Of a DNA stretch of 64,000 nucleotides, positions 9,004 through 37,818 are shown one piece after another; the stretch's first letter is position 1; each line of letters begins with the position of its first letter. The stretch is from a virus, in the IMG/VR virus record IMGVR_UViG_3300037042_006682, positions 1 through 64,000 of that record, one strand, 5' to 3'. Position numbers and translations under genes: made by a program. The notes beneath the pieces are model-generated. The model was not told the origin of the DNA and did not search any database. It saw only the letters and a list, made by a program, of their open reading frames with translations.

Positions 9004-9042
9004 GATGCGCTCCTTGGCTGTGCAACTCGACAACAGTCCGCG

Positions 9043-11510: not shown

Positions 11511-11675
11511 CTAGCAGCCCTCCGTGCGCTTAGTCGCACTGACCAGGCCCAGGCGCTGCGCGATCCGCGAGCACAGGCGCACGATCTCCCGCAGGCGCCC
11601 CGTCCAAATGCCCGCGTAGCCCTGCGTCGCCATCAAGCTCTTAGGCCCAAGCCCGCGCGTCACGATGCGGTTCAT
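11511..11675 (-). CDS. Small hypothetical protein (54 aa, below the ORF-track cut-off)
   Basis: ATG 11675 overlaps upstream stop; MNRIVTRGLGPKSLMATQGY..., TAG at 11511-11513. Confidence 0.5.
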   Translation of the reverse strand: MNRIVTRGLGPKSLMATQGYAGIWTGRLREIVRLCSRIAQRLGLVSATKRTEGC

Positions 11676-12145
11676 GCGGGCACCCGCTCGAAGACATTCT
11701 CCATCGTGGGGAGCCCCGCCTGGTCCTTCAGGTCAAACGTCAAGATCGGCGTCACATCATCGGTGCCATAGAAGATCATCTGGTCACCGAGAATGCGCCA
11801 GCGCCCCGTCTCCACCTGCCGCACGAGCGCGAGGTCCGCCTGGAGCGCGAGGTCGTGCACCGTCACGTCCTCGACCACCACGCATAGCACGCCGTTGGCG
11901 TCGACGAGCTGGTACTCCGCCACATACTGCGCCACGGGGAGCGCCGGGGGGAGCCACACGAGGCGCCACGTGCTCGACGCCCCCACCTGCGCGAGGTCCG
12001 TCAGGGGGAGGACCTCAACCTCGCCCCCCCCCACCACGTGGTACACGCGCACCGCGGCGCCCGCCACGTCGAGCTTGGGCGTCCCGTCCAGGTCCACCGC
12101 GAGCACCTGAAGCACCACCTGCGCCGGGTTCGGCCGTAGCAGCAT
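11672..12145 (-). CDS. Hypothetical Ig-like structural protein
   Basis: GAGGAGGTGG RBS; beta-rich sequence. Confidence 0.6.
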   Translation of the reverse strand: MLLRPNPAQVVLQVLAVDLDGTPKLDVAGAAVRVYHVVGGGEVEVLPLTDLAQVGASSTWRLVWLPPALPVAQYVAEYQLVDANGVLCVVVEDVTVHDLALQADLALVRQVETGRWRILGDQMIFYGTDDVTPILTFDLKDQAGLPTMENVFERVPA

Positions 12146-12154
12146 CCCACCTCC

Positions 12155-12637
12155 TCAGCGCGACAGCGCCATCCCTGTGACGATTGCCCCGAGCACCACG
12201 ACAGCCCCACCCAGCACGCCAGAAAAGATCCCCCAGCGACGTGCTCGCGCCTTTGCCGCATCCGCCTTCAACTGTGCGTCGCGCGCCCGTTCATCGGCAA
12301 TCACCTCACGCGCCAACGCCGCATCCGTCGCGCCCTTCTGTACCATGGCCTCCCCCTCATTCAACGCTGCCCGCATCACCTGGGTGGCATACAACGACTC
12401 AGCACGCGGCGCCCACTCAAGCAGCGCCCGGTAGTCCAACACGAGGTGCCCCAAATCCTTCCACTCATCGAGCGTGAAACACTTCTGGTCCACGCTGCCA
12501 ATACGACAGATCGTCCCCGATGGGACCAACCGCTCAGCGTTTGGTCGCGGGGGGAGAACCTCCTGTGCCCACGTGTTCCCGGCCATACAGCACAGTATCC
12601 ACAGCACTAATACTGGTCGCATCATCGATCGCATCAT
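12155..12637 (-). CDS. Signal peptide + coiled coil + C-terminal TM protein (spanin-like candidate)
   Basis: Hydrophobic N-terminus ending TWA|QE; C-terminal WGIFSGVLGGAVVVLGAIV; overlaps upstream gene by ~100 nt. Confidence 0.55.
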   Translation of the reverse strand: MMRSMMRPVLVLWILCCMAGNTWAQEVLPPRPNAERLVPSGTICRIGSVDQKCFTLDEWKDLGHLVLDYRALLEWAPRAESLYATQVMRAALNEGEAMVQKGATDAALAREVIADERARDAQLKADAAKARARRWGIFSGVLGGAVVVLGAIVTGMALSR

Positions 12638-12902
12638 GCCCCTCCTTCGTCTTTCTCACATCCGCCGCTGCGCCATCCCGCGTCGCCGCGTCCACCGCGT
12701 CCAACGCAGCCTTGGCTTCCTTGATCGGCCCCAACACGGGGGTCGGGTCGTATGGGGGCACCCCGGGCGACGGTACCACTGACGTGGGCTTGCGTAATCT
12801 ATGCCTTGCCATCACCGCGATCCATATCCCCACAAACATCCCCCCTGCCGACGCCGTAATCACCTTCCAGTGCCGCTTCGCCCAATCCCATGCCTTCTTC
12901 AT
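12534..12902 (-). CDS. N-terminal TM + coiled-coil protein (i-spanin-like candidate)
   Basis: ATG 12902: MKKAWDWAKRHWKVITASAGGMFVGIWIAVM then an Ala-rich helix. Confidence 0.55.
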   Translation of the reverse strand: MKKAWDWAKRHWKVITASAGGMFVGIWIAVMARHRLRKPTSVVPSPGVPPYDPTPVLGPIKEAKAALDAVDAATRDGAAADVRKTKEGHDAIDDATSISAVDTVLYGREHVGTGGSPPATKR

Positions 12903-13261
12903 GCACGCTTCTCCCGAGGCGGGATCGGCCCCGTCTGTCCCACATTTCCACGTTTCCGCAACAACCACCAGATCGCGAGCCCCCCGAGCGTGTTCGCGAT
13001 CATGTCACGCCAACTGGCCCCGTACCGGAAGCACCCGTCCCAGATGATCTCCCATGCCCCCATCATCACGACCCACGCACACAACGGCCCCAAAATCTTC
13101 CCCCCCCACCGACTGAGCAGCCAACCGAGGAAGAACACCATGAGGAAATGCATCACCTTGTCGGGCAACACGATGTTCCACGACGCGGGCAACCCCAACT
13201 CATCGAGCCGCAACATCTCCCACCAGTAGTCCTCATGTTCCCAACGAAATGCCTGCATCAC
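12899..13261 (-). CDS. VanZ-like membrane protein
   Basis: DKVMHFL...WE...ASWRDMIANTLGG with 3 TM segments. Confidence 0.65.
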   Translation of the reverse strand: MMQAFRWEHEDYWWEMLRLDELGLPASWNIVLPDKVMHFLMVFFLGWLLSRWGGKILGPLCAWVVMMGAWEIIWDGCFRYGASWRDMIANTLGGLAIWWLLRKRGNVGQTGPIPPREKRA

Positions 13262-13764
13262 GCCTCCTTCCCAATGATCTCGAAATCCTCCCCATGCGCG
13301 AGGCAGAAATCCCGGATATCTTGGGGCGTCGTCAACTCACGCGGCAACTCGCCCGCCCAGGCCACTCCAGACGCCCGTAAGAAGATCGCGACCAACTCGG
13401 AACACTTCACCGCCGAGGTCTTCCATCGAATCCGTGTCACCTTGACGCGGAACCACTCCTTGAGGGTGAACACCCACGCGATCACGAGCAAGCCGCCGTA
13501 GTCGTACCGCTGCCCCATCTCGTCGGAGATCGCCGCGAGCCCGGCCCGCGCCCCAAACTTGCACCGATACTCGGCCACTACGTGATGCCGCGCCCGAACC
13601 GACGGCACCATGCGCACGCCCCCGATGCGCGCCTCGGCCACCATGCGCCGCCCCCACACCGGGAACTCGATCAGGCAGTGCGAGACCGGACTACGGGTGA
13701 TCCACCGGATCACCGCGCCCAGCGGCGTCTTCGAGGCGGTCAGTACGATGCGCACGTCATCCAT
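13258..13764 (-). CDS. Permuted papain-like NlpC/P60 amidase/peptidase (YiiX/YebB-like)
   Basis: IRWITRSPVSH...GQRYDY...KCSELVA...TPQDI (His before Cys). Confidence 0.8.
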   Translation of the reverse strand: MDDVRIVLTASKTPLGAVIRWITRSPVSHCLIEFPVWGRRMVAEARIGGVRMVPSVRARHHVVAEYRCKFGARAGLAAISDEMGQRYDYGGLLVIAWVFTLKEWFRVKVTRIRWKTSAVKCSELVAIFLRASGVAWAGELPRELTTPQDIRDFCLAHGEDFEIIGKEA

Positions 13765-13771
13765 GAGGCTC

Positions 13772-14719
13772 CTAGTTCAACGCGTTGGCCCGCGCCCGGT
13801 ACAGCGTCGCCGCCAACTGGATCAACTTCGCACTCGTATTGTGCAGCGTCACCTTGAAGATCCAGTGCGCGAGCACGCGGATCGGCTTCACGGCGGGCAC
13901 GATCAACGGGTAGTGATCCGTCCCGAGCAGCGGCAACTTGGTCACGAACTCGTTGAGCGCGATGTCTGCGTCAAACAGGTGATAGCCCCCTGTGCCCGCC
14001 GCGTTGAGCGTCACGGCCTCGGTCACGGGATCCCAGTCAAAGTAGCCATGCCCGCCCGGTGCTGGTACCGGCCGCACCTTGGTGAACGCCACATTCGCGT
14101 TCTCCTTGGCGGTCAGGTCGAGATCCCAGTTGCCCGTCCCTGGAGTCGCCGGGACGAACACGTGCGCCCCGCCCCCCACCGCCACCTTGTTGTAATCGCC
14201 CGCCCCAAGGTTCTCTACCCCCGCCGTGGCAGGCGCATAGACTGTGAGCGAGACGTGATCGCCGAGCGCAAACCCTATGTGCCCGAGATGCCCGCCCGCG
14301 AGGTACGACCACTGCACGAACTGGAACTCCTGCACGTCGTCGCCCTGGGCGTCCGCCTCGAACGTCAACAGCTCCGTGCCGATGGTCCCCGCCGCCACGT
14401 CATCGCTGGCCCCGCAGAAGTTGGTCAACACGCCCAGCGGGAAGAGGTTGGGCGCCGTGTACTTGCGCCCATCCACATCCTGGGGCTCCACGAGCGCTGC
14501 CAAGGGCACCCCACTGTGCGCCGCTACCAACGCCGCGAGTACGCCCACCTCGCCCTCGCTGAGCGTCGTCTTGAACCACAGATCACAGGCATCTCCCGAC
14601 GTGTCGATCCGCGTCAACGCCACCGTGATCGCACTGGTCGCCACCTCTTGCGTGAGTCGATCCGGTGCCACACGATGATCGGGGAAATCACTCGAGATGG
14701 AAAACTCGTACTTCTGCAT
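13772..14719 (-). CDS. Hypothetical structural protein
   Basis: GGAG RBS; 315-aa beta-rich ORF in the structural block. Confidence 0.6.
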   Translation of the reverse strand: MQKYEFSISSDFPDHRVAPDRLTQEVATSAITVALTRIDTSGDACDLWFKTTLSEGEVGVLAALVAAHSGVPLAALVEPQDVDGRKYTAPNLFPLGVLTNFCGASDDVAAGTIGTELLTFEADAQGDDVQEFQFVQWSYLAGGHLGHIGFALGDHVSLTVYAPATAGVENLGAGDYNKVAVGGGAHVFVPATPGTGNWDLDLTAKENANVAFTKVRPVPAPGGHGYFDWDPVTEAVTLNAAGTGGYHLFDADIALNEFVTKLPLLGTDHYPLIVPAVKPIRVLAHWIFKVTLHNTSAKLIQLAATLYRARANALN

Positions 14720-14750
14720 GAATGTGCTCCCTCTGCCCCGCCCGAAATAA

Positions 14751-15383
14751 TCAGATCTTGCGATCTTCTACCAACAAGGACCCGTGAAACAAAGCAGGCG
14801 TGGTCAACGCCGTAATGCGCGCCGTCCCGCCCGTAGTCTTCCACTGAATCTTTACCGTATGCGAGGCCGCCGTCGCACTCTTCCGCAACACGATCGCCCC
14901 CGAATTCAACTGTGCGGAGGTCACACGCATCTGGATGCCCCGTTGCACCGTCCCATCCACTAGCACCTGAAAAGCAATATCCTGAAGCGTAGAGCAATCC
15001 GCACTTACCGAGAACCAGATGTGCAGGTACCCCGCCGTCTCCACCGTCAACGTCACGCTGAGCGCCGTCAAATCTACGAACGACGTGGAGGTCGTCGTGA
15101 CATCCGTCGTCACCTCGGCGAACCCCACCTGCCGGATCTCCGGCGCCGCGAGGTGGGCATCGATCTGGGCATGCGTGTTCGTCCCCCGATCGGCGATGTT
15201 CAGATGCGAGAGCTGATCCGATGCCCCCTGGGCATGGCTCGCCGCATGCGCCGTCGCCAGCGTCTCCTCGGTCCCATCGTCCTTCTTCGAGTACCAGCCG
15301 CCATCCAGCTTGGGATAGAGCTTCTGGAACCCCGTCGAAGGCGTGGCGTGCGTATCGCTCTTGCTGATATTCAACTCACCCAT
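14751..15383 (-). CDS. Tail fibre/appendage-like protein
   Basis: AGGAGG RBS, ATG 15383; HAASHA and GTNTHAQIDAHL fibre motifs; Thr-rich beta C-terminus. Confidence 0.6.
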   Translation of the reverse strand: MGELNISKSDTHATPSTGFQKLYPKLDGGWYSKKDDGTEETLATAHAASHAQGASDQLSHLNIADRGTNTHAQIDAHLAAPEIRQVGFAEVTTDVTTTSTSFVDLTALSVTLTVETAGYLHIWFSVSADCSTLQDIAFQVLVDGTVQRGIQMRVTSAQLNSGAIVLRKSATAASHTVKIQWKTTGGTARITALTTPALFHGSLLVEDRKI

Positions 15384-15394
15384 CGTGCCGCCTC

Positions 15395-15778
15395 CTACAG
15401 GATGAACACGCGTCCCTCGACGCGTAGCTCCCCCTCCAACGTCAACTGATCCGCGATGATAAACTGATACGGAATCCGCACCCACGCCACTTCATCCGCA
15501 TAGACCCACTCGCGCATGTAGGCGAGCCCCGTGCCCCCGTGCGCCAGCTCCTTGAGCGTCATGGGCTCGGGCACCGCCACATCCTGGAACGTCAGGTTGT
15601 CGTCCGCATCCCGCGTGACGAGCACCTGCGAATCGTTCGAGATGTCGCTCTGGATCGCCACGCCCCGGCAATCGAGGAAGTCCTCGTGCACGTCGATCTC
15701 GGACGGCGACAGATCCGTCTCCGTCCCCCCATGGGCGGGATCCTCCCACTTCAGCGCTTGAGTACGGTCGATCACCAT
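15395..15778 (-). CDS. Hypothetical structural protein (possibly leaderless)
   Basis: 127-aa ORF; -10-like box 6 nt upstream of ATG. Confidence 0.6.
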   Translation of the reverse strand: MVIDRTQALKWEDPAHGGTETDLSPSEIDVHEDFLDCRGVAIQSDISNDSQVLVTRDADDNLTFQDVAVPEPMTLKELAHGGTGLAYMREWVYADEVAWVRIPYQFIIADQLTLEGELRVEGRVFIL

Positions 15779-15784
15779 GCGCCC

Positions 15785-15814
15785 AGCCTATCACCGGGCA
15801 GGGGGGAACTCCAA
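15785..15814 (-). promoter_or_regulatory. Putative sigma70-type promoter TTGGAG-N18-TAGGCT, leaderless geometry
   Basis: Read on the minus strand; ATG 6 nt after the -10 box, no SD. Confidence 0.35.
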
Positions 15815-15817
15815 GGT

Positions 15818-16891
15818 TCAGGCGAGGGATGGTGTCGACTCGTCCGCGATGTGCTGGTGCGTGCGGCGGTTGATGACGTTATAAATAGTCATCGTCGTCA
15901 CCCCAAAGATTTGCGCCAATTCGACCGCAGAATGAGCATCGCAGTGCCTAGCCTTGCGGATGAACCGAACATCCTCATCACTCAAAAACACACGTCGCGA
16001 GAGATCTTGGGCATCACATGCCGCCGTTTGAACCTCTGCTACGTGGCTATAAGTACTACCATGTAAGATCCTATAAATCGTATCAACCGAAACACCGAAA
16101 ATCTTAGCTAGGCTACGACCGCTATGCCCATGACTATGCAAATCAAGTATCTCCACAACGGTGTCTTTGTTCTTGAAAACACAATGCCCCCTGAACTTAG
16201 AAACCATGTCCTGCGCATTATCTACGTGTGTGCCTAAAAACAGGTGTTCTGGATTCACACACGCCGGATTGTCACACCGATGCAGGACATTCTTCCCTTC
16301 AGGAATCGATCCGTGATGGATCTCCCAGGACACACGGTGCGCCAACACCTTCTCCTTGCGCGTCGCATCGTAGATCCGCCCATACGTCACCCCATCCACT
16401 GCCCCCTTCCATAGCCAACACCCCTCCGTCTTCTCCACATACTTCCAGAACCGTTCCTGTATCGGCACCGGCACCGGGCCATTACGCGACCCCATCCTAA
16501 TCTTGGATGCCTGTGTCTTCTGAATACGCTCCTCAGACTGCCTAACCCCCGTGTTCCAGTGCCGATCCCCACTGTAGGTCCGATGCTCCTCGTAGATCCC
16601 CTGGCGCCGCAACTGCGACACAATGCGCCGCTGTGTGGTCCCAAAGTGCTCCGCCAACAATTGCGGAGATCCCCCCGCTTGATACACCGCCGCCAACTCC
16701 TTGGCATCCACCTCCTGCTCACGCGCAACAAGCAACTGTGCTTCCCCCCGCGACCGCACCGGAATCCCCACCTTGGCCAACCGAGCCCGTATAGTGTTCG
16801 ACTTTAACCCCACCTCGTTAGCAATCTCCACCGAGGTCTTCTTTTCCACCACGTACCGCATCCACAAAAACTCACGCGTCAACTCCAGCAT
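15818..16891 (-). CDS. Free-standing HNH homing endonuclease with HTH repeats
   Basis: RFWKYVEKTEGCWLWKG...AHRVSW...VLHRCDNPACVNPEHLFLGTHVDNAQDM; N- and C-terminal HTHs; lower GC than flanks. Confidence 0.9.
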   Translation of the reverse strand: MLELTREFLWMRYVVEKKTSVEIANEVGLKSNTIRARLAKVGIPVRSRGEAQLLVAREQEVDAKELAAVYQAGGSPQLLAEHFGTTQRRIVSQLRRQGIYEEHRTYSGDRHWNTGVRQSEERIQKTQASKIRMGSRNGPVPVPIQERFWKYVEKTEGCWLWKGAVDGVTYGRIYDATRKEKVLAHRVSWEIHHGSIPEGKNVLHRCDNPACVNPEHLFLGTHVDNAQDMVSKFRGHCVFKNKDTVVEILDLHSHGHSGRSLAKIFGVSVDTIYRILHGSTYSHVAEVQTAACDAQDLSRRVFLSDEDVRFIRKARHCDAHSAVELAQIFGVTTMTIYNVINRRTHQHIADESTPSLA

Positions 16892-16968
16892 CGCTTCCTC
16901 CTTGGGTTCGCTGCCAGAGCCAGTATCAGTTTTTCAGATTAAAATCAATACGTGGAGAAAGTCGTGCT

Positions 16969-18363
16969 TTAAGCCAGCTTACGACCATAATCCGCGATGG
17001 CCACGTCGAGGTCCGTCGCGTTCTTGGCGTAGCCCACGCGGATGACCTGCCCCGGCTTGGGCACGTTCGCGTAGGTCACGAGGGCGCCCGTGGTGCCGAG
17101 GTAGTAGGGCTCGCCCACGGTCGCGCCGGACAGGCAGCCCGTGCATACGCCGCTCTTCACGACCTCGGAGGTCCCGGGGTTCGCCGCGCCACCCGTGCGG
17201 GCGATACCGATCGCGCGGGCATGCGGCGCCGTGTCGTTGTCGGCGACCGCGATCTCGTTGTTGGTGCCCGCCCAGCGGACCACCTTGCCCGTCGCCACAA
17301 CCTCGGTGTTGAGGTGCGTGTCCTCGACGCGCTTCGCCTCGTCGACCGCCGTCACGGTGTGCGTGTGCAGGGCATCCGCGTTCGACGCACTGCCCGCCGT
17401 GAGGGTGCCGAGGTTGGTCGCCGTCACGTTCACCGACACCACGCTGTCGTTGATCTTGAACGCCGAGGGCAAGCCCACGACCCGGAGCCCATCCCCGTCC
17501 ACGTCGAGGGTGTCCGGCGATTCGTCGAGCTTGACCGAGACACCCGCCGCGACCACCTGGAGGCCGCCCAGCGGCGCCGCGAGCACCGACACGGCCTTGG
17601 TCGGCGAGGTGCCCGTGAGCTGTAGGCCCGGATCGGTCGCCAGGGCCAGGCTGATGGCATCCGATCCGATCGCGATGCCGTCGCCCGCGCCCACGCCGAG
17701 GAGGTTGCCCGTCTTGTAGAGACCAGGACCGGCATTGATCTGGCCCGCGCCGGAGAACTGGACCCAGGTCGTACCGTTGTAGGTCCACGCGGTGTCTGCC
17801 CACATGCCCGCATCGCCGTTGATGAGCGCGGCCCATCCGTCGGTCGGCACCTCAAACGACCACGTATTCGCCGTGGCGTTGTAGGTCGCGATCTGGTTGG
17901 CCTTCGCGCTGAACGATCCCGTGGCACCCGTCGCCTTCACGATCACGCGCGTGTTGTTAGCCGGTTCACCCGCCGTGTTCGCCTGGACGATGACCCACGC
18001 GGTGCCCGACCACTCCACGATGTCGCCGTTCGCGACGGTCCCCGTGAGCCAGTTCTTGACCACGTAGCAGTCACCCGCCGCGGCCGGCACGGGATCCGCG
18101 CCCAAGAAATCCGCGTCGCTGACCATGTTGAGCACTTTGGCCGGGGCACGCCACGTGAGGCCGCTGACCATGTTCTCCAGGTACTGCTTGGTGACCGCGT
18201 CCTGGGCGTTGTCGGGATCGGCCAGGCCCGTGATCTTGTGGGACGCCATGGCGATGTTGCCGCCCATGGTGAGCCCGAACAGCGACAGGGTGTCAGATGC
18301 GGTATTCTGTTCCTCGTGGTAGCCGTAGGTCTCGTTGAAGAACAGGAACTTGCGCTCGGTCAT
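16969..18363 (-). CDS. Fibre/decoration structural protein
   Basis: KITGLADP..AQDAVTKQY fibre motif, Trp-rich WSG/WTYNGTTW repeats, C-terminal cement-like domain (ARAIGIA...G.PYYL..TG...RVGYA). Confidence 0.7.
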   Translation of the reverse strand: MTERKFLFFNETYGYHEEQNTASDTLSLFGLTMGGNIAMASHKITGLADPDNAQDAVTKQYLENMVSGLTWRAPAKVLNMVSDADFLGADPVPAAAGDCYVVKNWLTGTVANGDIVEWSGTAWVIVQANTAGEPANNTRVIVKATGATGSFSAKANQIATYNATANTWSFEVPTDGWAALINGDAGMWADTAWTYNGTTWVQFSGAGQINAGPGLYKTGNLLGVGAGDGIAIGSDAISLALATDPGLQLTGTSPTKAVSVLAAPLGGLQVVAAGVSVKLDESPDTLDVDGDGLRVVGLPSAFKINDSVVSVNVTATNLGTLTAGSASNADALHTHTVTAVDEAKRVEDTHLNTEVVATGKVVRWAGTNNEIAVADNDTAPHARAIGIARTGGAANPGTSEVVKSGVCTGCLSGATVGEPYYLGTTGALVTYANVPKPGQVIRVGYAKNATDLDVAIADYGRKLA

Positions 18364-18417
18364 TGAGATCCTCCTGGGTTAGCCCGCTGCACGCGGCGCG
18401 GGCTTCTAGCGCCGGCC

Positions 18418-18897
18418 TCAGCCGACGAGCGTGCCCTCTACCGTGATCATCACGCGCGCCGTCGCGGTGGTGTCCGCACTGGTCACCGTGCCATGCAGCG
18501 TCGCGTCGCCCGCGATGGCGGGCATGACCCCACTGACCGGCGCTAGGGGCAAGCTCTTGCCCGCCGCCGTAACGCCCGTCAGCGCCGTCGCCGCGAGGAG
18601 GTCCACCCCGCTGACCGTGGTGCCCACAGAGACCTCGGCATCGCCCGTCCCCGCGGTCAGGCCCGTCGCGATGATGCGCGAGGGCACGAACTTGCGCCCC
18701 TTCTCGCCCTTGAGGGTGAGCGTGAAGGCCCCGGTGCCGCCCGTAAGGACGCTGACCGCGACGGCCGCGACCTCGATGGCCATCTTGCCGCCCACGCTGG
18801 GGACCTCGAACAGCAGCTTCTCCGCCGCCGCCGTGGGGTCCGCGTCGTCGCTGAAGTGGTGCGTCGGGTTGAAGAAATTAAACTGCTTGTCTGGCAT
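18418..18897 (-). CDS. Hypothetical decoration-like structural protein
   Basis: AAGGAGG RBS; T/A/G-rich beta protein; N-terminus FNFFN resembles FLFFN of 16969..18363. Confidence 0.6.
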   Translation of the reverse strand: MPDKQFNFFNPTHHFSDDADPTAAAEKLLFEVPSVGGKMAIEVAAVAVSVLTGGTGAFTLTLKGEKGRKFVPSRIIATGLTAGTGDAEVSVGTTVSGVDLLAATALTGVTAAGKSLPLAPVSGVMPAIAGDATLHGTVTSADTTATARVMITVEGTLVG

Positions 18898-18934
18898 GGA
18901 TGCCTCCTTCGCCCCCGACGCCCGCGACGCCGGG

Positions 18935-19345
18935 TCAGTTGTCCGTGGGGGCCGGCACGAGCCGCCCCGAATCCTGCACCAAATACTCGTCCAGGCTTAC
19001 GCCCAGGCGCCCTTGGATGCGCTCCCGCAGCGCGTTGTACTCACCCCGGATCCGCTCGATCGACGCCGTGTTCTCCGTCTGCTGCTTGCGGAACTGGTCG
19101 CGCTTTTGCTGATACTCGATCATGAGCAGCTGCTCCTGCACCGCCAGCTTGTCCCGCACCGCCACGTTCATCTCGATGCGCGCCGTGTGCAACTCGAGCA
19201 GCGCCATCTCCTCGCCCGTCATGTACAGGGCCTCCGTCTCGGGGCTCTCGGGGCTCTCGGGAGTCTCGGAAGCCGCCGCTGCCGTCACTGCCTTCAACGC
19301 CTTCGCCGCGCGCCGCACACCCTTCTTCATCTCATCGCTCATCAC
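18935..19345 (-). CDS. Coiled-coil hypothetical protein
   Basis: AGGAGGAG RBS; short (PES/PET) repeat then coiled coil. Confidence 0.6.
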   Translation of the reverse strand: MMSDEMKKGVRRAAKALKAVTAAAASETPESPESPETEALYMTGEEMALLELHTARIEMNVAVRDKLAVQEQLLMIEYQQKRDQFRKQQTENTASIERIRGEYNALRERIQGRLGVSLDEYLVQDSGRLVPAPTDN

Positions 19346-19365
19346 AACGCTCCTCCTTCAGCTTG

Positions 19366-19797
19366 TCACATCTCAGCCATAGCCCGCTTCGTCAAAGGGC
19401 CGATCTCGCCCGTCAAAAATAACACGTCAACCGCGATCGGCGTACCAAATCGCTGGATAATTACCGCCCCAGCGTCCGACCAGGGACAGGTCTGCGTGGG
19501 GCGCCCATCAAGCCCCACCCACACGGGGCGCGCCGGATTCAGCCCTGCAAAGAGCCCGCGCACGAGCCCCACGCGCTGCATGATCCCCGTAGTCGGGGTA
19601 TCCTTGCGCACGAGCACGCCCAGGGCGGGCATACGCGCGTCCTGCGCGGGATCCGCCCGCGTCACGCGCCAGCGCCCCGTCCCCGTTGCCCCATCGCGCA
19701 GCGCTAAGCAATCCCCCACAGCATCACCTGCAAGGCAGGCCACTGGGATGGCCTCCTCCGCGTCGGTCCCAAAGCCGAAGCGCGCAACAACCGCCAC
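19366..19797 (-). CDS. Capsid cement/decoration-like protein
   Basis: RAD...MPALGV...GL.P..PVWVG.DG...IQRFG pattern similar to the C-terminal domain of 16969..18363. Confidence 0.5.
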   Translation of the reverse strand: MAVVARFGFGTDAEEAIPVACLAGDAVGDCLALRDGATGTGRWRVTRADPAQDARMPALGVLVRKDTPTTGIMQRVGLVRGLFAGLNPARPVWVGLDGRPTQTCPWSDAGAVIIQRFGTPIAVDVLFLTGEIGPLTKRAMAEM

Positions 19798-19821
19798 ACT
19801 GCGCCCCTGTCCGCGCCCGCC

Positions 19822-20325
19822 CTACGGCAGGCGGCGCTCCGGCGCGAAGTGCTCGCGCCGCTTGACATTGATCGTCCATGCCACCGTCGTGGGGGTGTCC
19901 AAGACGTTCCCACTTCTTCCCACCTTCACGACGTCCCAGTAGTGCTCGAACACCGCCACCACGTCGTCCTCCTTGGGAGTCGCGCCTGCGGGGGCCGCCT
20001 GCTCCCACGCGAGGGCCGCCACGCGCATAATCGCGTCGTACTCGACCTCCTGACCCTCCTCGCGCACGCTGGGCTCGCGGTTCTCGCTCTCCTGGTACTC
20101 GATCAGGCACACCACGTCGAAGGGCGCAAACCACCCCCACACCTCGCGGCCCGGCGCGGGCCCCCCACCATACACGGGATCGCTCGGCTCGTTGTAGAGC
20201 GCATCCACGTGGGCCCCCCGGTTCAAGCGGTAATACTCCGCCGTCGGGCCCGTCATGGCCTGCCGCTCGGCCTCCAGCTTCTTGAGGTAGGCCGCATCCT
20301 CCGCGCCCCGGCACTTGATCGGCAC
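19822..20325 (-). CDS. Putative neck/head-closure protein (gp14-like)
   Basis: YYRL...DALYNEP...PKEDDVV...WDVVKV; position in the head-neck block. Confidence 0.55.
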   Translation of the reverse strand: MPIKCRGAEDAAYLKKLEAERQAMTGPTAEYYRLNRGAHVDALYNEPSDPVYGGGPAPGREVWGWFAPFDVVCLIEYQESENREPSVREEGQEVEYDAIMRVAALAWEQAAPAGATPKEDDVVAVFEHYWDVVKVGRSGNVLDTPTTVAWTINVKRREHFAPERRLP

Positions 20326-29331: not shown

Positions 29332-32300
29332 TTAATCCCTCCGCCCATGGCCCGCCGCCCGCCGATCCCGACGCGCCTGCCGAGCCTGTGCCTCTAGCGT
29401 CCGATCGATCCCCTCGACCCGCGCCGCCATGCGCTCCGTGAGCCGCGTGACGCGCCCGTGCTCGCTCAGCAAGCGGTCCAGCCGCGCCTTTACCGCCGCG
29501 TCGCCCTCCAGGGCGCGCCCGCGGGGCTCCTCCGCCTCGGGGACCGCCCCCTCGGCCGCCCCCATCTCCGGCGGGAGCCCGCCCTCGGCGCCCATCGGCC
29601 CCATCACGGTCTCCGGGTACTCCCGGATGATCTCCGCCTGCGTCGCCGCATCGCCCTTCATGGCCCCGCGCTTGTCCTTGCGCGCCTCGTCCGTCACGTA
29701 GATGGCCTCGTCCTGGGAGAAGCCAAACACGTGCTGGAGGATCCAGGGCTGCGGCACCAGCTCGCCAAGGCCCTGCGCGAGCTGCGCCTGCTGCAACCGC
29801 ACCTCCAGCTGCGCCAGCTCGAAGATATACGAGGGCACCGTCATGTGGAGGTCGAAGGCCACCGCATCGGGGTCGATCCCCAGCGCCGCAAGGTGGACCC
29901 GGCAGACCTGCTTCATGCCGTTGCGCACCTCGCGCTGCACCCGCATGGCCGCCCGCGCAAACCGCACGTCATCCCCGCTCGCGATGCGCCCCGTGGTCTC
30001 CTCCATCCCGAGGAGGCGCTTGGGGGTCTGCGCCGCGGCAAGCACCTTGTTGCGGAAGTACTCCAGGATGTCGAGGTCCTGGTTGTCCACACCCTGCAGC
30101 ACGTCGACGCGCGTGCTGTCCTTGCCCCCGCGCGTTGGCAACCACAGATCTTCCAGATTGGAGTTGCACACGAAGATCCCCGCACTGAGTCCGAAGGTGT
30201 GAGCCCCCTCAACGGTCAGCGTGTAGGTATCCTCGCGTTCCGCAATCCGATCTACAGCCACAACCTTGTGGTTATGCGCAATGGCCGACTGCCGGAAAGC
30301 CGTGAAGCTATCAAATCCGTGCTGCCGATAAGCGCGCAGCATTGAATGTCGGCAAACATTGGTCACCGGCTGAAAGCTGGCACCGTTCACCTCGGCCATG
30401 AGCTGTGGCGTCGTCTTAACAAACTGCGCCACCACATCCGCGCTAGCCGTTGGATGCTCCCCTAAGAACAATGCCACTTCAGCCATGAACAATGAGCTGT
30501 ACTGGATCGTGCGAAGTTTGATCACCCGCTGCTTGTTCTGCTCATCTCCCCAATAGGATCGCGCCGCCTCACTGCGAATCGCGTTGTCCTGTTTGTGCTT
30601 CTCCGAGACATTGTATGCACGTAAGTACTGACCACTGTCACGCAGACGATTGCTCTCGCTTACTCCCTTGGAAATACGCGCGCGCACCTCGGGTCTACGC
30701 CCCGCATCGACCATTAACCTCGCCGCATGCTGCTGCTGCTCGCGCATGCGCTGATCAAAGATCGGATCATCGGCACGCTTGCGCTTGATGGCCGTGTTCC
30801 CATCTTCCCCCCGCGCCGCATGCCAGGCTATGTGTTCCCCTGGCGTCAAAGCGCGCAAGGCCCACGGGGCATTGTTCCCACGTCCGAAATCGTGATGGAT
30901 GTGCATGCCCTCTGTCTTGAAACCACACTCACGCGCTACCACGCGATGCGTCACCACATACCTGCGCGTGTCCGGGTCGTAGAGGTGCTCGTACTTCCCG
31001 GACCTGCTATGCCACTCCCGCTCCGCAGGCTTAACCCGCAAGGGCATGAGGGCATCCCCAGGCTTGAGATCTTGCGCCTCGACCCGCTCCCCGCTGCGCC
31101 GGATGCACTTATGGTCCGGCGTCAAGCGTACCGTCTCGCCATTGTCGAGCGTAAGCTTGATCAGCTCGGCGTTTTGTCGCGTCTTCCCCGCCCACGCGAC
31201 CTTGCCCGGCACGAACTTCCCGTTGCGCGCCAGATCTACGGAATAGACCCACTGTTCCTCGCCACGCTCATGTGCCTCGGCCATCGCGACCAATGACCGC
31301 TCCGTCCCATCCAGCAATCGCACGCGCGTGTCCCCAGTGAGGCACTGCACATTATACCGAAAATCTATCTGATTAGTCGTCGGGTTAAAGACCTTCTTGC
31401 GCGAGTACTGCTGCTGGATCTTCTTGACGTGCGCCCAGCCCTCGGCCGGGGGCAGATCGCCCGTGTCGATGTAGAAGGCGTTCCGCGAGGGCCCGCGCGT
31501 GAGCTTTGTCACCAGCGCGGTGTCCTCCATCATCATGAGCCGCTTCCACGCCCAGCGCCCGCCGTCCAGCACGCTCACGCCGTAGACCGCCGTGGTGTCC
31601 TTCTGCCGCAGGCGCCAGTGCACGATCTCCCAGGGCTCGAACACCACGCACCCATTGACGGGCTTACGCTGGTCGCGCGCCACCTTCAGCGCCGCGTCGA
31701 ACTCGCGCTGCGTGAGCTTGAACTGCCCCGTGGGGTCCTGGATGAAGCCGAGGGTCGTCCCGTGGTTGTCCTGCACGCGCCGCATCGTGGGGGGCGCCAG
31801 GAAGTTGATCCCGACGACGCCCTGCTTGCCTACGAGGACCTCCCCGAAGCGATTGCCGTACTTGCCCAGCGTGCGGGCGAGCCCGTGGACGTCGTCCTCC
31901 AGGCGCAGGCGCCGCGTGAGAAGGTCCTCCAGCACGTCGCGCACGAGCTTGTCCTTCGAGGAGGCCCAGATGCTGCGCCCCGTGTTGCTGTCCGGGATCG
32001 AGGCGTCGTCCGCGTAGAGCGTGAAGATCGACGAGGTGAGGTCGTAGTCGTCCATGTCCTCAGCATCGCGGTACCGCTGCATGAGGTCGTCAGAAAGCTG
32101 GAGGGCCTGCGCGACGGGGCTGTTCGCGTCGAAGTTGCCGCCGGTCTGCAGGGCCAGGGCCCCCGTGTAGCCGTCCTTGGCGAGGAGCGGGTTGTCCTGG
32201 TGCTTGCCCGCGATCACGGCGCCCTGGGTCACGCCGCGGGGCGCCGTGGGGCCCTCCTGGGCCGGCCCGCTCCCACGCCCCAGCCAGCCCCGGATCTTGT

Positions 32301-32382: not shown

Positions 32383-35300
32383 CTAACCCATCAAGAAGGG
32401 CAACATGGGGACCTCGGCCTCGCCCTCGGGGCCCGGCTGCCCGGTCACCCACGCGAAATCCTCGGCCTCGGCGCGCCCCTCGCCTGGTTGTAGCACCCCG
32501 AGGGGCACCCTCGGAACTTTTTTCAAAAGCCCCGCTACAACGCCCGCTACCGCATCGGCACAGTTGTGTACAAAGACCCCCACCGCCAGCGCGAAGTTAT
32601 GATGAATATCTACGGTCATGTCAAAGACCGGCGCCGCCTCCAAGGGCTCCACGTGGGCCACGCAATACTCATGGGGCTGCCCCGGCGGCTGCCAAGACAG
32701 GGGCATCAACAGATCCCCTGGCCTCAAGGCATGCGCTTCACAGAAGGTCCCCGCCCACAGCATAACCTCATGGTCAGGCGTGCAATCAAAGAACAGCCCC
32801 GTCTCCAGCCAAACGCGGAGCATCTCGCACTCCCCCACTAGGTGCACATTGCGCGCCCACGCGGGCACCACGTCCCCATTGGCATCGCACGCATAGCTCC
32901 AAAACTCGCGCCCCACCAGCTCACGTATGGGCACCGCCCTCCCATCCAGCATGGCAATCTTTGTCTCCCCAGAAAGGCAATCCTTCCCACCCGCCACGGG
33001 ATGGTCGATCTTGCCGCGGAGGCGATCGTGCTCTAGGGCCCGCAGCTCCCCGAGCAGGGGCGCGTGGGGGTACAACTCGATGCGCCGCTCGTAGATCGCC
33101 GAGCGCAGGGCCTCGTAGGGCACCATCGTCGCATCCACGCTCAAGATCTCCGAGGCCACGCCGCGCCGCTTCATATGCTGCAGAGTATCGACCGCTTGGT
33201 ATTGATCTGTCGAGAACCCGATCAACACAAACCCGTGTGCCTGGATGTCATAGATCACTGCCCGGATGTCGGCGAGCTGAATCTGCTCCCCCGGCGGGGG
33301 CCGCACCTGCAGCACGAGGTCGATCACGAAGGTCGGCGCGAGGTCCGTGTAGTGATCGCCCTCAGGCGTCCGCCGCACGACCTCCACCCAGCGCTCTATG
33401 TGCCCGCACGCGATCCCCGTGGCATCTCCTGACAGCGAGGTGTCGATGTGGACATAACGCAGGGCCCGCGGATTGCGCAGGGGCGTCCAGGCCTCCTCCG
33501 TAAACCCGCCCGGCAGGCGCCGCACCGAGGCCCTGGCCAGCTGATACCAGTGGATCACGAGGGGCTGCCCATACTGCCACGTCTGGTGATCTGCGGGGTG
33601 GCGCCGCGCCGGGTTCACAGCCTCCTGGATCTTCTCCGTGCGCTGGATGAACACGCTGATGGCCGTCGTGGGGACGCCCGCGATGTCGCGGATCGCATCC
33701 TCCAAGTTGGACTCGAAGTCCACGCGGTACTCCTCGGGAACCGCGATCACGCGCGCCTCGTCGGGGAGGGTCGCAAGGACCACCTCCTCGCCGGGGGGCA
33801 AGATGCGGCTGCGCAGGGAGCTGCCCCCGCAGAGCACCTGGAAGGTGCGCCCGCTGAAGGAGCCCGGCGGCTTGACCTCCCACGTGGCCATCTCCATCGC
33901 GTAGATCGAGGGGTCGTGGTGGGCCGCCGCGAGGCGCCGATCGATGAACGACCCCACCGTGTTCGCGCTCGACACCATCACGATCATGCCGGGGAGGTCC
34001 CCGCTCGCCTGCACGAAGCGCGACTTGATGCGGCGCTCCAGGGAGCGGTACGTGACCTCGGCGTGGTCGTAGTGCGCGAGGCTCTTCTGCTGGCCGTCTG
34101 CCGTGCGGATCTTCTGCTTGGTGGAGCGCACAAAGTTGGTGTTATGCACCACCACCCCATCCGCCACGAAGGTCTGGAACTCCGTCTCGATCGCGTAGGT
34201 CTGCTCGGGGGGCAACGGCGTCACCGCCGTCACGCGGGTCAGGCGGAGGTCGACGGGGAGGTCGGTGACGCGACAACGCTCGGGTCGGACGCCCCAGGCG
34301 GAGTCACGCATACCAGCAATCGCTGCCGCACGCGCCGTTGGGCAAGCCCATCCATGAATGCCTGGTTGATGAATGGTCCATCCCACACGGACGGGATGGT
34401 AGATCCGTTGATAACGATAAGGAACGGCTGCTGTTGCCGTTGGCAGTGCCCCCACATCGCCAACAACCGCGCTCTTGTTCGAGGCGCATAGAACGATGTC
34501 TTGTCCTTCCCCTCGACCACCACCGTCACCCCGTCGGCGCGATCCACCTCGAAGTCCGCCACCGTCAACCGCTGCTGTCCCCCGATCTCGTATGACACAA
34601 ACGGCAGTTGATCCTCGCCCCGGATCGCCACCACCCCCTCCTGCGCCATCAGGGCTTGCACCAGCACCAACTCCGCATCCGACCGACACGGTATCCGCTG
34701 CCCATCCGGCCCCGTCACCCAGTGCGTGTATGTCCGCTTGCGATCTCGGATCGCCTGCGCGTTCCCCGCGGAGATGCGCGTCCGCGACGCCTCCGTGTGC
34801 GGCGTCCCCGGCCTCCCCAAACGCGCCTCGCGTAGACGCCGCCTGTGCGCCTTGCTGAGCGGCTTGCCATAGCGTGGATTGTCCGCCCCCCACATCACGG
34901 GCGGCAATGCCATGCACCCCTCGGCAACCGCCTGTTTGGCCCTCTCTGACATTCGTTCTCGGGCGGCCGGATCCTGCATGAGACGCTTGTGCGCCTCGGA
35001 CATCTTGATCCGCGTCTCCTCGCTCACCGGCTTCTGAATACGCCCTCGCTGTGCCTCGGACATCTTGCGCCGCGTCTCCGCGCTGTGGTGCCATCCCGTC
35101 CGCAGCTTGGCAATCTCGCGCCTCCGCTGCCGCTGCTCCTCGTTCGGCACCCACCCCTTGCAGCCCCGCCGCGCCTCGGACATCTTGCGCCGCGTCTCCG
35201 CGCTGGCCGTCCGCCCCGTGTTGATCTCGCTGAGCTTCTTGCGCGTCTCCTCGGTATGCGTCCGCCCCGTATTCGCCTCGGACATCTTGCGCAGCTCGTC

Positions 35301-37818
35301 TTCGGTATGACGCCGCCTCTTGCCCGCCTCGCTGAGCTTTCCTCGTGTCTCCACTGAGACCTCGCGGCCTGCACACGCCTCGCGCATCTTCTGCTTGGCC
35401 TCCTCCGTATGCTTCTTGCCCTTGCGCGCCTCGCTGATCTTGCGCCGCGCCTCCTCGCTGAACACACGCCCCTTGCCTGCCGCACTCAACTTCTCGCGAT
35501 GTTCGTCCGTCAACGGCTTCCCACGCTTCGCCGCGCTGACCTTCGCCCGCGCTTCTGCACTCAACGTCTGCCCTTTCCTCGGCATCCCGCACCTCAACGA
35601 CCAGTTCGTCCCCGACCCGCACGTCCCGCGCGTAGCGGTACACCAGCCACGCGCCCTCCCGCACCAACACCGGGTGGTCCAGCGAGGGCGCCACCGCGCC
35701 CCCATCATAGGCCAGCTCCACTAAAGGCTGGACCGTCGAGGGGCGGATGGCAAAGCGACCGTACCGCACGCGCTGCGTCGCGTGATCGAGGCACTTTACC
35801 CGCCATCGAGATCGCTCTTCTGGCGCCATTGCCACAAGCGCGCCCACTGACAGATTTGTCTGTAACACGCCGCTTTTACAATGTAAAGCAGAAGTTGATC
35901 GAACACACTCGTCGAGGGCCGCGGCGAAGGCGTTAGTGCCCATGGAGCGCTCGGCGAGGTAGCTCGCGACGATCATCTGCACGTTGTAGGGGAAGTACGT
36001 CGCCTCGGTGTGGACGTCCGGTTTGAAGTGCTCTTGGAAGTACGGGCTGATCGCGAGCTTGTTGTCGATGGCCGACTTGAGGACCTGGCGCGCGAGGACC
36101 AGGTTGCGGCTCACGAGCACGATGCTCATCTCGGAGCCCGGCGACATGCCGTAGGAGGCCTGCGGGTTCACGAGGCAGCTCAGCTCGTAGAGGAGGCGGC
36201 ACATGGCGATCGAGAGGGCGGTCGTGTTGTGTACCACCACGCCATCCGCCACGAAGTTGCGCGGCCCCGGCACCTCCACGTCGTACACGTCCTCCAGCTC
36301 CCCGCTGCCCGGATCGTAGGACACCACCTGGTCCCAGAACAGATCGCCCCACCACGCGCACCACGGCGGCAGCGTGAAGGCCTGCTGCATGCGCACGAAC
36401 TTGGGGCGCCCCTGGTAACGAGACGCGCGCCACGGCGACCAAGCCTCGTTCCGCATCGGCCCCAGCTCCCGCCGTAGGCGTCGCAGCACAGCCGCGTTCA
36501 CCGGCATGATGTCCACGTTGGTGTTGCTGGCGGTCGCCCGCGCCGTTGCGAGGATCGTCGCGCAGCGGTCTTCCTTGCCCAGCACGGGTCCCACCGCCGT
36601 CAGGAAGCGCTCCAGGTTGTCAGCCTCCGTGACGAACAGGCGCCAGGCCGGCTTGGTGCGGAGTTCCCCCTTGTGCGTGTAGGTCTTCTGGCAGGGGTAG
36701 ATCCGCGAGTGTACGCCGAAGCGCAGGAGCAACTGCCCCACGTCGCGCACGAAGCCCTCGCTGGCCAACGTCAGCTCTGCCTTGCACGGCGCCTTGGGCT
36801 CCAAAGAGCCATCCGTCGCCCACAACCGATTGAGGAACAGCCCCAACTGCCGATCGGAAAGGCCAAAGAAGGCGGAAGGCACACGCTTGTCTCGCGATAG
36901 ATGGGCAAGGTCGTATTTATCTCGCACCCACGTCGTCCCGCAAGCACGCCACTCCTCACACTGACGTCCTCTGGTATCACGCGAGGTATCCTGTGCCACG
37001 CTCTGCACCACCAAGCGCATCGCGTCGGAGACCACATGAAAGCGCTCCATCACAGGTCCTGGCTTGTTGCAGAACGTCCAATTACTGCTTGTGCAACTAC
37101 CGTTTGCCAGCATGAACGCCACGAACTCGACCTCGGCGTCCGTGACCTTCAAAGGGTGCTCCGGCGGTGGCAGCGTGCGCGCCGTCCCCACTAGGGATCC
37201 GGGCTGCATCTCGCCCGCGGGCCGATACCCGTCCGGCGTCAGCACGGGGTGGTCCGGCGTGACCTCCACCCGCTTGCCGCTCAGCAGGCGCAGCGTCCCC
37301 ACGGGTTTGCGCCCCGCACATGTAACAATTGCTGGGCGCGTAACGGTACATCCCCTGTCCTGATCATAGGCCGCCACGTGCACCGCCCCCATCTCGTTCA
37401 GGGGCACCTCGCTGATCACACGCTGCTGCCCCAGATGGGGATCGTACAGCGTGCTCCGCGCACCCAGACACTTCCCCCACCCCGTGCTGCCCCCCAGGAT
37501 GACCTCGCGGTAGTGCGCGCCCGGCTCGAAGATCTCGATGAGCTTGCGCCGCAGGACCGGGTAGAGCGTCTGGCAGGACTCCCCCAGGTAGTAGGGATCA
37601 TCAATGAAGGTCGCCATGTCGACGGGGGCCACGCGGTACCGCTTCGCGTAGCACTCGTTGACGATCTCGGGGCGCCCCGCCTGCTCCTCATACAGGAGGG
37701 CCTCGAAGAGGCGCCGCTCATCGGGGGGCAGCGCCGCGAAGCGCCGCAGGAGGGCCGCCCGGCGCTCGGCCGGCGTGCGAACCGTCCGCGCGCGCCCCTC
37801 GGGGGTGCGGACGATCAT
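32383..37818 (-). CDS. terL: Terminase large subunit; contains 3 inteins (spliced product ~668 aa)
   Basis: Walker A GSTGWGK|T, Walker B AALDE|T, RNase H-like YVHIDTSLSGDATG, STDQYQ, KIDHP..GGKD|CADAV. Confidence 0.93.
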   Translation of the reverse strand: MIVRTPEGRARTVRTPAERRAALLRRFAALPPDERRLFEALLYEEQAGRPEIVNECYAKRYRVAPVDMATFIDDPYYLGESCQTLYPVLRRKLIEIFEPGAHYREVILGGSTGWGKCLGARSTLYDPHLGQQRVISEVPLNEMGAVHVAAYDQDRGCTVTRPAIVTCAGRKPVGTLRLLSGKRVEVTPDHPVLTPDGYRPAGEMQPGSLVGTARTLPPPEHPLKVTDAEVEFVAFMLANGSCTSSNWTFCNKPGPVMERFHVVSDAMRLVVQSVAQDTSRDTRGRQCEEWRACGTTWVRDKYDLAHLSRDKRVPSAFFGLSDRQLGLFLNRLWATDGSLEPKAPCKAELTLASEGFVRDVGQLLLRFGVHSRIYPCQKTYTHKGELRTKPAWRLFVTEADNLERFLTAVGPVLGKEDRCATILATARATASNTNVDIMPVNAAVLRRLRRELGPMRNEAWSPWRASRYQGRPKFVRMQQAFTLPPWCAWWGDLFWDQVVSYDPGSGELEDVYDVEVPGPRNFVADGVVVHNTTALSIAMCRLLYELSCLVNPQASYGMSPGSEMSIVLVSRNLVLARQVLKSAIDNKLAISPYFQEHFKPDVHTEATYFPYNVQMIVASYLAERSMGTNAFAAALDECVRSTSALHCKSGVLQTNLSVGALVAMAPEERSRWRVKCLDHATQRVRYGRFAIRPSTVQPLVELAYDGGAVAPSLDHPVLVREGAWLVYRYARDVRVGDELVVEVRDAEERADVECRSAGEGQRGEAWEAVDGRTSREVECGRQGACVQRGGAAQDQRGAQGQEAYGGGQAEDARGVCRPRGLSGDTRKAQRGGQEAASYRRRAAQDVRGEYGADAYRGDAQEAQRDQHGADGQRGDAAQDVRGAAGLQGVGAERGAAAAEARDCQAADGMAPQRGDAAQDVRGTARAYSEAGERGDADQDVRGAQASHAGSGRPRTNVREGQTGGCRGVHGIAARDVGGGQSTLWQAAQQGAQAASTRGAFGEAGDAAHGGVADAHLRGERAGDPRSQADIHALGDGAGWAADTVSVGCGVGAGASPDGAGGGGGDPGRGSTAVCVIRDRGTAAVDGGGLRGGSRRRGDGGGRGEGQDIVLCASNKSAVVGDVGALPTATAAVPYRYQRIYHPVRVGWTIHQPGIHGWACPTARAAAIAGMRDSAWGVRPERCRVTDLPVDLRLTRVTAVTPLPPEQTYAIETEFQTFVADGVVVHNTNFVRSTKQKIRTADGQQKSLAHYDHAEVTYRSLERRIKSRFVQASGDLPGMIVMVSSANTVGSFIDRRLAAAHHDPSIYAMEMATWEVKPPGSFSGRTFQVLCGGSSLRSRILPPGEEVVLATLPDEARVIAVPEEYRVDFESNLEDAIRDIAGVPTTAISVFIQRTEKIQEAVNPARRHPADHQTWQYGQPLVIHWYQLARASVRRLPGGFTEEAWTPLRNPRALRYVHIDTSLSGDATGIACGHIERWVEVVRRTPEGDHYTDLAPTFVIDLVLQVRPPPGEQIQLADIRAVIYDIQAHGFVLIGFSTDQYQAVDTLQHMKRRGVASEILSVDATMVPYEALRSAIYERRIELYPHAPLLGELRALEHDRLRGKIDHPVAGGKDCLSGETKIAMLDGRAVPIRELVGREFWSYACDANGDVVPAWARNVHLVGECEMLRVWLETGLFFDCTPDHEVMLWAGTFCEAHALRPGDLLMPLSWQPPGQPHEYCVAHVEPLEAAPVFDMTVDIHHNFALAVGVFVHNCADAVAGVVAGLLKKVPRVPLGVLQPGEGRAEAEDFAWVTGQPGPEGEAEVPMLPFLMG
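32563..32979 (-). mobile_element. TerL intein 3, mini-intein (139 aa) in the nuclease domain
   Basis: CLSGETKIAMLDG...CTPDH...VFDMTV..HHNFAL..GVFVHN|C. Confidence 0.92.
34141..35907 (-). mobile_element. TerL intein 2 (589 aa) at Walker B, carrying an out-of-frame endonuclease gene
   Basis: CVRSTSAL...SLDHPVL (block B)...low-complexity middle...TYAIETEFQTFVADGVVVHN|T. Confidence 0.88.
34239..35585 (-). CDS. NUMOD3-repeat + PD-(D/E)xK (TnsA-N-like) endonuclease nested in the +1 frame of TerL intein 2
   Basis: GAGGT SD 6 nt before ATG 35585; ~10 repeats of (H)S/T.E.R.KMSEA..G; C-terminal RSDAE...VADFEV...VVVEGK. Confidence 0.85.
   Translation of the reverse strand: MPRKGQTLSAEARAKVSAAKRGKPLTDEHREKLSAAGKGRVFSEEARRKISEARKGKKHTEEAKQKMREACAGREVSVETRGKLSEAGKRRRHTEDELRKMSEANTGRTHTEETRKKLSEINTGRTASAETRRKMSEARRGCKGWVPNEEQRQRRREIAKLRTGWHHSAETRRKMSEAQRGRIQKPVSEETRIKMSEAHKRLMQDPAARERMSERAKQAVAEGCMALPPVMWGADNPRYGKPLSKAHRRRLREARLGRPGTPHTEASRTRISAGNAQAIRDRKRTYTHWVTGPDGQRIPCRSDAELVLVQALMAQEGVVAIRGEDQLPFVSYEIGGQQRLTVADFEVDRADGVTVVVEGKDKTSFYAPRTRARLLAMWGHCQRQQQPFLIVINGSTIPSVWDGPFINQAFMDGLAQRRVRQRLLVCVTPPGASDPSVVASPTSPSTSA
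36226..37470 (-). mobile_element. TerL intein 1 (415 aa) with LAGLIDADG endonuclease at Walker A
   Basis: CLGARSTLYD...VTPDHPVLT; AFMLANGS and RLWATDGS; ends VYDVEV...NFVADGVVVHN|T. Confidence 0.93.

Follow-up and report, generated by a model that had tools for sequence, protein, structure and literature searches.

The window, meaning the whole 64,000-nucleotide stretch analysed here, covers positions 1 to 64,000 of a viral record of 161 kb that is 88% complete and is present in sediment metagenomes. On the minus strand lies a gene for the terminase large subunit (TerL), directly upstream of a T4-like portal gene. No other TerL match was found in the 161-kb record, and the gene forms a single ORF of 1811 codons, open over its full length. 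The extein shows 31-35% identity to cultured phage terminases. Three intein sites are found in TerL (Table 1), and among the window and its relatives they vary independently of one another. The Walker A site holds a full intein in the window and a mini-intein in the related locus L002, and is empty in L001. The site in the TerL nuclease domain holds a mini-intein in the window and a long intein with an HNH-like middle in L007, and is empty in L001, L002 and L009. An intein with an in-frame HNH-like middle was also seen in the portal gene (30163-31317, minus strand), the portals of L001 and L002 being empty. A further intein-like match, inside a 784-codon frame, is located outside the window (G000:C1:74739-75137, minus strand).

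The second TerL intein is inserted in frame in the conserved Walker B motif. Empty alleles join the flanks exactly, as LDE/TDF in L007 and LDE/MNF in L008 and L009, the slash marking the insertion point. The splicing ends that the original prediction assigned to this intein, Cys638 following LDE and a terminal HN/T, are both present and are those of a class 1 intein (Cys1, HN/T). The block B residues S75 and H78 are invariant in 11 inteins. The block-F position, usually Asp, is Ala in the window and Ala or Ser across the intein relatives, which may bear on how efficiently the intein splices. An AlphaFold model of the intein was confident for residues 1-108 and 544-589, and these two ends together form an intact HINT fold (Z 19.6 to NpuDnaB, rmsd 1.8 Å over 136 residues). 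Residues 109-543 had a pLDDT below 50, and as a protein this filler shows no conservation until about residue 539. No Pfam family was matched by the in-frame middle, in agreement with the predicted lack of a nuclease motif there, and the element is in this respect not a canonical bifunctional intein. The Walker B element is best regarded as a contiguous class 1 intein, which presumably splices itself out, because only one TerL copy is present in the 88% complete record.

Table 1. Features of the terL locus and of the element inserted at Walker B (window positions).
Feature	Position	Strand	Remarks
TerL (terminase large subunit) gene	37818..32383	minus	1811 aa precursor, three inteins
N-extein flank, Walker B ending LDE; 5' half of presumed homing site	35908..35931	minus	empty alleles
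Second TerL intein	35907..34141	minus	589 aa, Cys638 to ...VVVHN, then Thr; inserted at Walker B
Intein N-terminal splicing region, residues 1-108	35584..35907	minus	Cys1, block B SxxH, pLDDT ~90
Shine-Dalgarno-like GAGGT	35595..35591	minus	5 nt before nested ATG
Nested endonuclease gene	34239..35585	minus	448 aa, +1 frame, ATG to TGA
NUMOD3 repeat array and linker, nested residues 1-261	34803..35585	minus	Pfam
TnsA-like PD-(D/E)xK nuclease domain, nested residues 262-415	34341..34802	minus	fold; Pfam matches of relatives
Intein-frame filler, residues 109-543	34279..35583	minus	stop-free, predicted disordered
Intein C-terminal splicing region, residues 539-589, blocks F and G, ending His-Asn	34141..34293	minus	
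C-extein flank from Thr(+1); 3' half of presumed homing site	34117..34140	minus	empty alleles

The coherent 448-aa ORF that had been predicted in the +1 frame of the same DNA (35585..34239) is present. Profile searches of both frames, proposed with the prediction, returned NUMOD3 in the nested frame and no family in the intein-frame middle. The Pfam NUMOD3 match had an E value of 1e-29 and covered seven stretches, and 11-13 short repeats were counted by eye. The domain that follows had been described as a TnsA-N-like PD-(D/E)xK nuclease, and its structural model (pLDDT 89) agrees with this. The best fold match was Tn7 TnsA (Foldseek E 2.9e-6; Z 11.0, rmsd 2.5 Å over 111 residues) and the next match had a Z of 7.1. 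Vsr (1cw0, Z 6.8) and I-Bth0305I (3r3p, Z 6.0) lay within the background range. PF08722, the TnsA-like Pfam family, was not matched by the nested protein of the window itself; it was matched by 5 of 14 aligned relatives, with a best E value of 1.1e-5. The nested nuclease gave no Pfam match to Vsr, HNH or LAGLIDADG, and a sequence search of the PDB with the nuclease alignment gave no significant match. The Atlas clusters nearest to the domain are viral TnsA-like proteins, some of them with NUMOD3. Residues E305, D344, E358 and K360 are invariant in all nine aligned nested copies. By its modelled structure, the domain is a relative of the TnsA fold and not a transposase subunit.

The predicted GAGGT precedes the nested ATG, at a spacing of 5 nt and not the 6 nt first given. 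Its anti-Shine-Dalgarno duplex of -9.3 kcal/mol ranks fifth of the 78 ATGs within terL. In the predicted RNA fold the Shine-Dalgarno sequence is partly paired. A hairpin over the Shine-Dalgarno sequence is a feature of T-even homing genes; here such a hairpin is only weakly predicted, for the window and part of the relatives, and is not common to all. No sigma-70 promoter was found inside the element. At its other end the nested gene had been said to stop before the C-terminal splicing blocks. It ends at intein residue 556, ahead of blocks F and G, so this is correct for the blocks and not for the splicing region, since the last ~18 codons of the nested gene coincide with the conserved intein residues 539-556.

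Relatives were collected by searches with the nuclease domain, which gave 12 proteins at E <1e-10; P0015 and P0012 were left out of the locus comparison. Ten relatives, in which a TerL intein ends HN/TNF or starts LDE/C, share the insertion site, the +1 nuclease frame and the open TerL frame, down to 44% nuclease identity. They are L001, L002, L014, L020, L021, L023, L024 and L025 and the partial loci L029 and L030. Where the start is visible (the window and eight relatives), the nested ATG lies in nine of nine at the same point, the end of the N-terminal splicing region. It is preceded by GAGG or GGAGG in all eight relatives with a visible start. The nested N-terminus is M-[PA]-x-K in nine of nine, L024 having M-M-P-R-K. 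The length of the nested proteins, 216-470 aa, changes with the number of NUMOD3 repeats, and both frames are kept. No relative of the nuclease domain was found in cultured phage records or in GTDB genomes. A free-standing relative of the nuclease domain with 45% identity was found in L026 (3001-3714), near DNA methylase and SNF2 helicase genes. Its catalytic motif is degenerate, it lacks a NUMOD3 array and has an additional segment at the C-terminus, and both its other frames are full of stops. In the nested ORF of L030 (1-612) the nuclease domain is repeated in tandem, with two copies or more; the TerL frame is open across both, and the last copy is without the catalytic Asp and Lys.

Selection was compared between the two frames by dN/dS, as had been suggested, and purifying selection was found in the nested frame and not in the intein-frame middle. 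For the nuclease core in the nested frame, dN/dS was 0.15-0.24 in the three closest pairs, 0.23-0.36 in three further pairs and 0.62-0.64 in two distant GC-rich pairs, and the differences were concentrated at nested-frame third positions. In the TerL frame dN/dS was above 1 in every pair. Positive selection in the TerL frame was considered and rejected, since values above 1 arise there as a by-product of synonymous change in the nested frame. Conservation changes over to the intein frame at about intein residue 539. By the pattern of substitutions, amino-acid selection acts on the nuclease frame, and over this stretch the terL frame is selected only against stops and frameshifts.

The stop-free host frame of the original prediction was also found, with selection against stops in the TerL frame. 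A stop arises in the TerL frame only if a nested codon ends in T and the next one begins with AA, AG or GA. Across the nested gene no TerL-frame stop was observed against 9.4 expected from synonymous codon shuffles, and none of 20,000 shuffles gave zero. Third-position T was absent from all 91 sites where it would make a TerL stop, and was present at 39 of 247 positions elsewhere (Fisher p 3e-6). In the remaining frame the number of stops was about as expected. The expected number of TerL-frame stops was 9.4 for the window, 10.7 for L001, 17.0 for L002, 8.2 for L014, 16.4 for L020, 23.6 for L021 and 12.9 for L023, with none observed in any, and in 5,000-20,000 shuffles per locus a zero-stop outcome did not occur for these seven loci. 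In the short, GC-rich relatives L024 (p 0.05) and L025 (p 0.025) stop avoidance was marginal when each was taken alone. The prediction carried the caveat that an alternative frame is easily kept open in GC-rich DNA. This applies to the most biased genes of the genome: one of 20 native long genes, with a GC3 of 0.96, has a -1 run of at least 449 codons, so that long open runs can arise from codon bias alone in this genome. It does not apply to the nested gene, where GC bias does not explain the open TerL frame, because the synonymous shuffles never reach zero stops, nor to the less GC-rich relatives, for which 13-24 stops would be expected and none is seen. The stop-free -1 run of the native gene (GC3 0.96; G000:C1:116537-118975, minus strand, outside the window) is 489 codons long. 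A free-standing GIY-YIG-like gene with NUMOD3-like repeats is located at 59479-60222 of the window (minus strand); it has a GC3 of 0.35 in a genome of ~67% GC, and its 33 stops in the -1 frame make it a useful control.

An assembly artefact, in which compensating frameshift errors had put an in-frame nuclease out of frame, had been named as a finding that would overturn the prediction. The source contigs match the window without an indel, and an independent sample, 99% identical, also shows none. Ten other loci have the same layout, and their samples and assemblers differ. In addition, no longer form with the nuclease fused in frame to the intein was found among the matches listed, which is weak evidence. 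Assembly error was rejected on the indel-free reads and contigs and on the diverged relatives of the same layout, and its probability is regarded as negligible.

Several types of allele were found at the Walker B site. Empty alleles are present in L007, with Thr at +1, and in L008, L009 and L010, with Met at +1. These last three may be closed to this intein, because Met at +1 cannot support splicing. L016 (3338-4000) and L018 (3359-4000) have mini-inteins of 221 and 214 aa. In both, most of the nested gene is deleted, and the ATG region and the last ~55 codons are kept as a linker; the remnant in L018 carries a stop in the nested frame. These mini-inteins are deletion derivatives of the full element and not uninvaded ancestors. 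An ancestral, never-invaded mini-intein was not found among the alleles. Empty, full and mini alleles make up the three classes expected of a homing cycle.

The intein and the extein are discordant in these alleles. L014 and the window have 57/64% identity in the extein and 81/82% in the intein, while the empty L007 is much nearer to the window than L014 in the extein, with 74/80% identity. The exteins of L001, L002 and L016 are identical, and their inteins are only 74-90% alike. A C-extein tree was made from 10 sequences, L014 being used without part of another intein. A first extein tree, made under a mixture model, was poorly resolved. A single clade of intein-bearing alleles was rejected on the C-extein tree (p-AU 0.012), as was a single clade of the four alleles with close inteins (p-AU 0.0002); with 10 sequences, these AU tests fit gains as well as repeated precise losses. 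Taken together, the empty alleles, the deletion-derived mini-inteins and the intein/extein discordance are consistent with homing. Mosaic alleles were also observed, involving the window (34293-34505), L002 and the runs X4 and X5. In these, the C-terminal part of the nuclease is swapped for a diverged 220-nt segment that adds 9 nt and keeps both frames, the alleles being otherwise ~98% identical. The segment is perhaps a swap of specificity.

The reading preferred here, at a probability of about 0.8, is that of a contiguous class 1 intein that carries a separate homing endonuclease gene in the +1 frame, made from an internal start and driving the spread of the element. Ribosomes on terL would read through the 435 filler codons, and the intein ends would then fold as a HINT domain and splice out the 589-aa segment to leave a working terminase. 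Other ribosomes would start at the internal Shine-Dalgarno sequence and the ATG at 35585 and release a free nuclease of ~50 kDa. In a co-infected cell this nuclease would most likely cut intein-free terL at the Walker B codons or close by, and repair of the cut allele would copy the whole element across. Alleles losing the nuclease would shrink to mini-inteins. The element may have originated when a free-standing nuclease gene invaded a mini-intein; that order of events, the mini-intein before the invasion, is inferred because the mini-inteins found are deletion derivatives. At the computational level the interpretation offered by the original prediction held throughout, in the separate frame, the conserved start, the selection on the nested frame, the stop avoidance, the HINT fold and the signs of mobility.

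Other explanations differ from this mainly in how the nuclease and the terminase would be made. The nuclease could be produced without its own start, if ribosomes on terL shifted into the +1 frame, giving a fusion of TerL-N, intein-N and nuclease. In the window, the 45 codons that precede the ATG contain no +1-frame stop, and the partial pairing of the Shine-Dalgarno sequence in the folded RNA would also suit such a mechanism. The positions of the ATG and the Shine-Dalgarno sequence are nevertheless constant in nine of nine, and no conserved slippery site was noticed by eye in the flanks of L025, L020, L023 and L021. A frameshift origin is considered quite unlikely because in these four relatives the +1 frame has a stop 1, 4, 5 and 6 codons ahead of the ATG, respectively, so that hardly any space for a shift is left. 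Alternatively the locus could be a fractured gene, with a split intein around a free-standing endonuclease, the C half being translated from an internal codon such as the ATG at 34311 and joined in trans. This arrangement is known (Dassa et al. 2009, PMC2677866), and the in-frame ATG at 34311 is used by gene callers in L014. On the other side, the N half is without a terminating stop in 11 of 11 loci. A split intein is held to be very unlikely because stops are selected against and because ATG 34311 has a weak Shine-Dalgarno sequence (-4.9 kcal/mol) and is absent in L002, L020, L021 and L023.

The filler might never be translated, if it were removed with an RNA intron or bypassed by the ribosome. 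Phage homing genes are often found within group I introns, and the filler is without a fold, both of which favour this possibility. Selection against TerL-frame stops would be senseless in a segment that is not read, and a contig from an RNA library (X4) crosses the element without a skip; the contig is weak evidence, as it may be DNA, and it says nothing on transcription, strand or start. An RNA intron is highly improbable because there is no non-coding flank, intein codons lying on both sides of a segment that codes for the nuclease from end to end, and because Rfam gives no intron family up to an E value of 1. A last explanation accepts separate expression and supposes that the nuclease is not, or never was, the homing enzyme here, being a passenger or serving another phage function. 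TnsA-like viral proteins are common outside inteins, and decayed forms occur in L016, L018, the last domain of L030 and the free-standing relative in L026. Opposed to this are the invariant catalytic residues in nine of nine copies, the purifying selection, the one fixed insertion site and the discordance with the extein tree, and a passenger is thought unlikely. A homing role is thus argued from context, since neither a TnsA-like homing endonuclease nor a NUMOD3-TnsA nuclease in such a role was found in the literature search, within the limits of the library.

The layout does not amount to a new principle, since homing endonucleases encoded out of frame within inteins have been published before, as has the invasion model (10.1101/2025.01.02.630785; 10.64898/2026.09.14.751524). 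Gosselin, Arsenault and Gogarten described actinobacteriophage inteins with an endonuclease VII-like homing endonuclease in frame 3, as well as phage inteins with antisense LAGLIDADG or Vsr-like genes, and proposed invasion of the intein by a free-standing homing endonuclease (bioRxiv 10.1101/2025.01.02.630785). As in their set, a contiguous phage intein has a same-strand endonuclease ORF in another frame between its splicing regions, with unstructured filler, and many of their non-canonical inteins are in TerL. Unlike theirs, of at most 385 aa, the present intein is 589 aa long, uses the +1 frame and carries NUMOD3 with a TnsA-like PD-(D/E)xK domain; NUMOD is absent from their main text, and TnsA and NUMOD from their supplements. 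Phillips, DeSimone and Gogarten described a cyanobacterial dnaX intein with an out-of-frame LAGLIDADG endonuclease, for which they cite Gorbalenya 1998, and proposed invasion of a mini-intein by a free-standing gene (bioRxiv 10.64898/2026.09.14.751524). Shared with the dnaX intein are a disordered in-frame middle, an overlapping ORF with a putative Shine-Dalgarno sequence, an omega that is under 1 in the frame of the nuclease and exceeds 1 in that of the host gene, and the co-occurrence of empty, mini and full alleles. A host-frame omega above 1, as found here for TerL, is described as a by-product for dnaX (10.64898/2026.09.14.751524). The dnaX element differs in residing in a cellular gene with a LAGLIDADG enzyme, whereas a TnsA-like enzyme with a variable NUMOD3 array is found here in phage TerL at Walker B; TnsA and NUMOD are absent from the text of Phillips et al.

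Other known systems share parts of the arrangement. In the fractured genes of Dassa et al. 2009 (PMC2677866), a split intein is combined with a free-standing GIY-YIG or Vsr-like endonuclease. The likeness lies in a separately started endonuclease gene between the intein halves, its 3' end overlapping C-intein codons, and, in two of theirs, in NUMOD3 repeats N-terminal to a restriction-type (Vsr-like) domain. In none of the 11 loci was the host gene split by a stop and a new start; unlike in the fractured genes, the host frame is unbroken, the intein is contiguous and trans-splicing is not needed. The ShiLan element, an out-of-frame HNH gene in a phage methylase (Arsenault, Gosselin and Gogarten 2025, PMC11855218), likewise keeps the host frame free of stops where it overlaps a concealed endonuclease gene that has its own start, and differs in its HNH enzyme and in having no splicing domain. 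The N-terminal domain of Tn7 TnsA (PDB 1t0f, 1f1z; PF08722) is similar in fold and, compared as a pattern, in its E...D...ExK-type arrangement. It differs in its identity of only 19-23% and in its Tn7 context, which is missing here, and the N-terminal NUMOD3 array replaces the TnsA C-terminal domain. [quoted passage not shown] It is set apart by its NUMOD3 and TnsA-like enzyme, by the length of the overlap and by the depth of its conservation; the nuclease is of none of the types of that class (endonuclease VII, LAGLIDADG, Vsr-like), TnsA being the best match at Z 11.0.

The element is considered a fairly probable example of an old and still mobile lineage of overprinted inteins, whose active homing endonuclease combines a TnsA-like PD-(D/E)xK domain with an expandable NUMOD3 array. 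If so, it would represent a subfamily of homing endonucleases not found in the literature search and would suggest that TnsA-like domains can serve as homing enzymes. A dual-frame stretch longer than 1.3 kb would then have been stable in the long term without turning into an in-frame fusion or a split intein, which bears on how inteins acquired endonucleases. In the published model, out-of-frame nucleases are rare intermediates that decay or shift into frame. The out-of-frame state can also be a stable end state, because it is kept in relatives whose nucleases are 44-55% identical, and because alleles of all three kinds (empty, full and mini) are present. The two frames should be separable by mutation: a change that is silent for the nuclease should be able to abolish the terminase, and one that is silent for TerL should be able to abolish homing. 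In annotation, elements of this kind easily escape notice, since gene callers at these loci give either the nuclease or a cut TerL.
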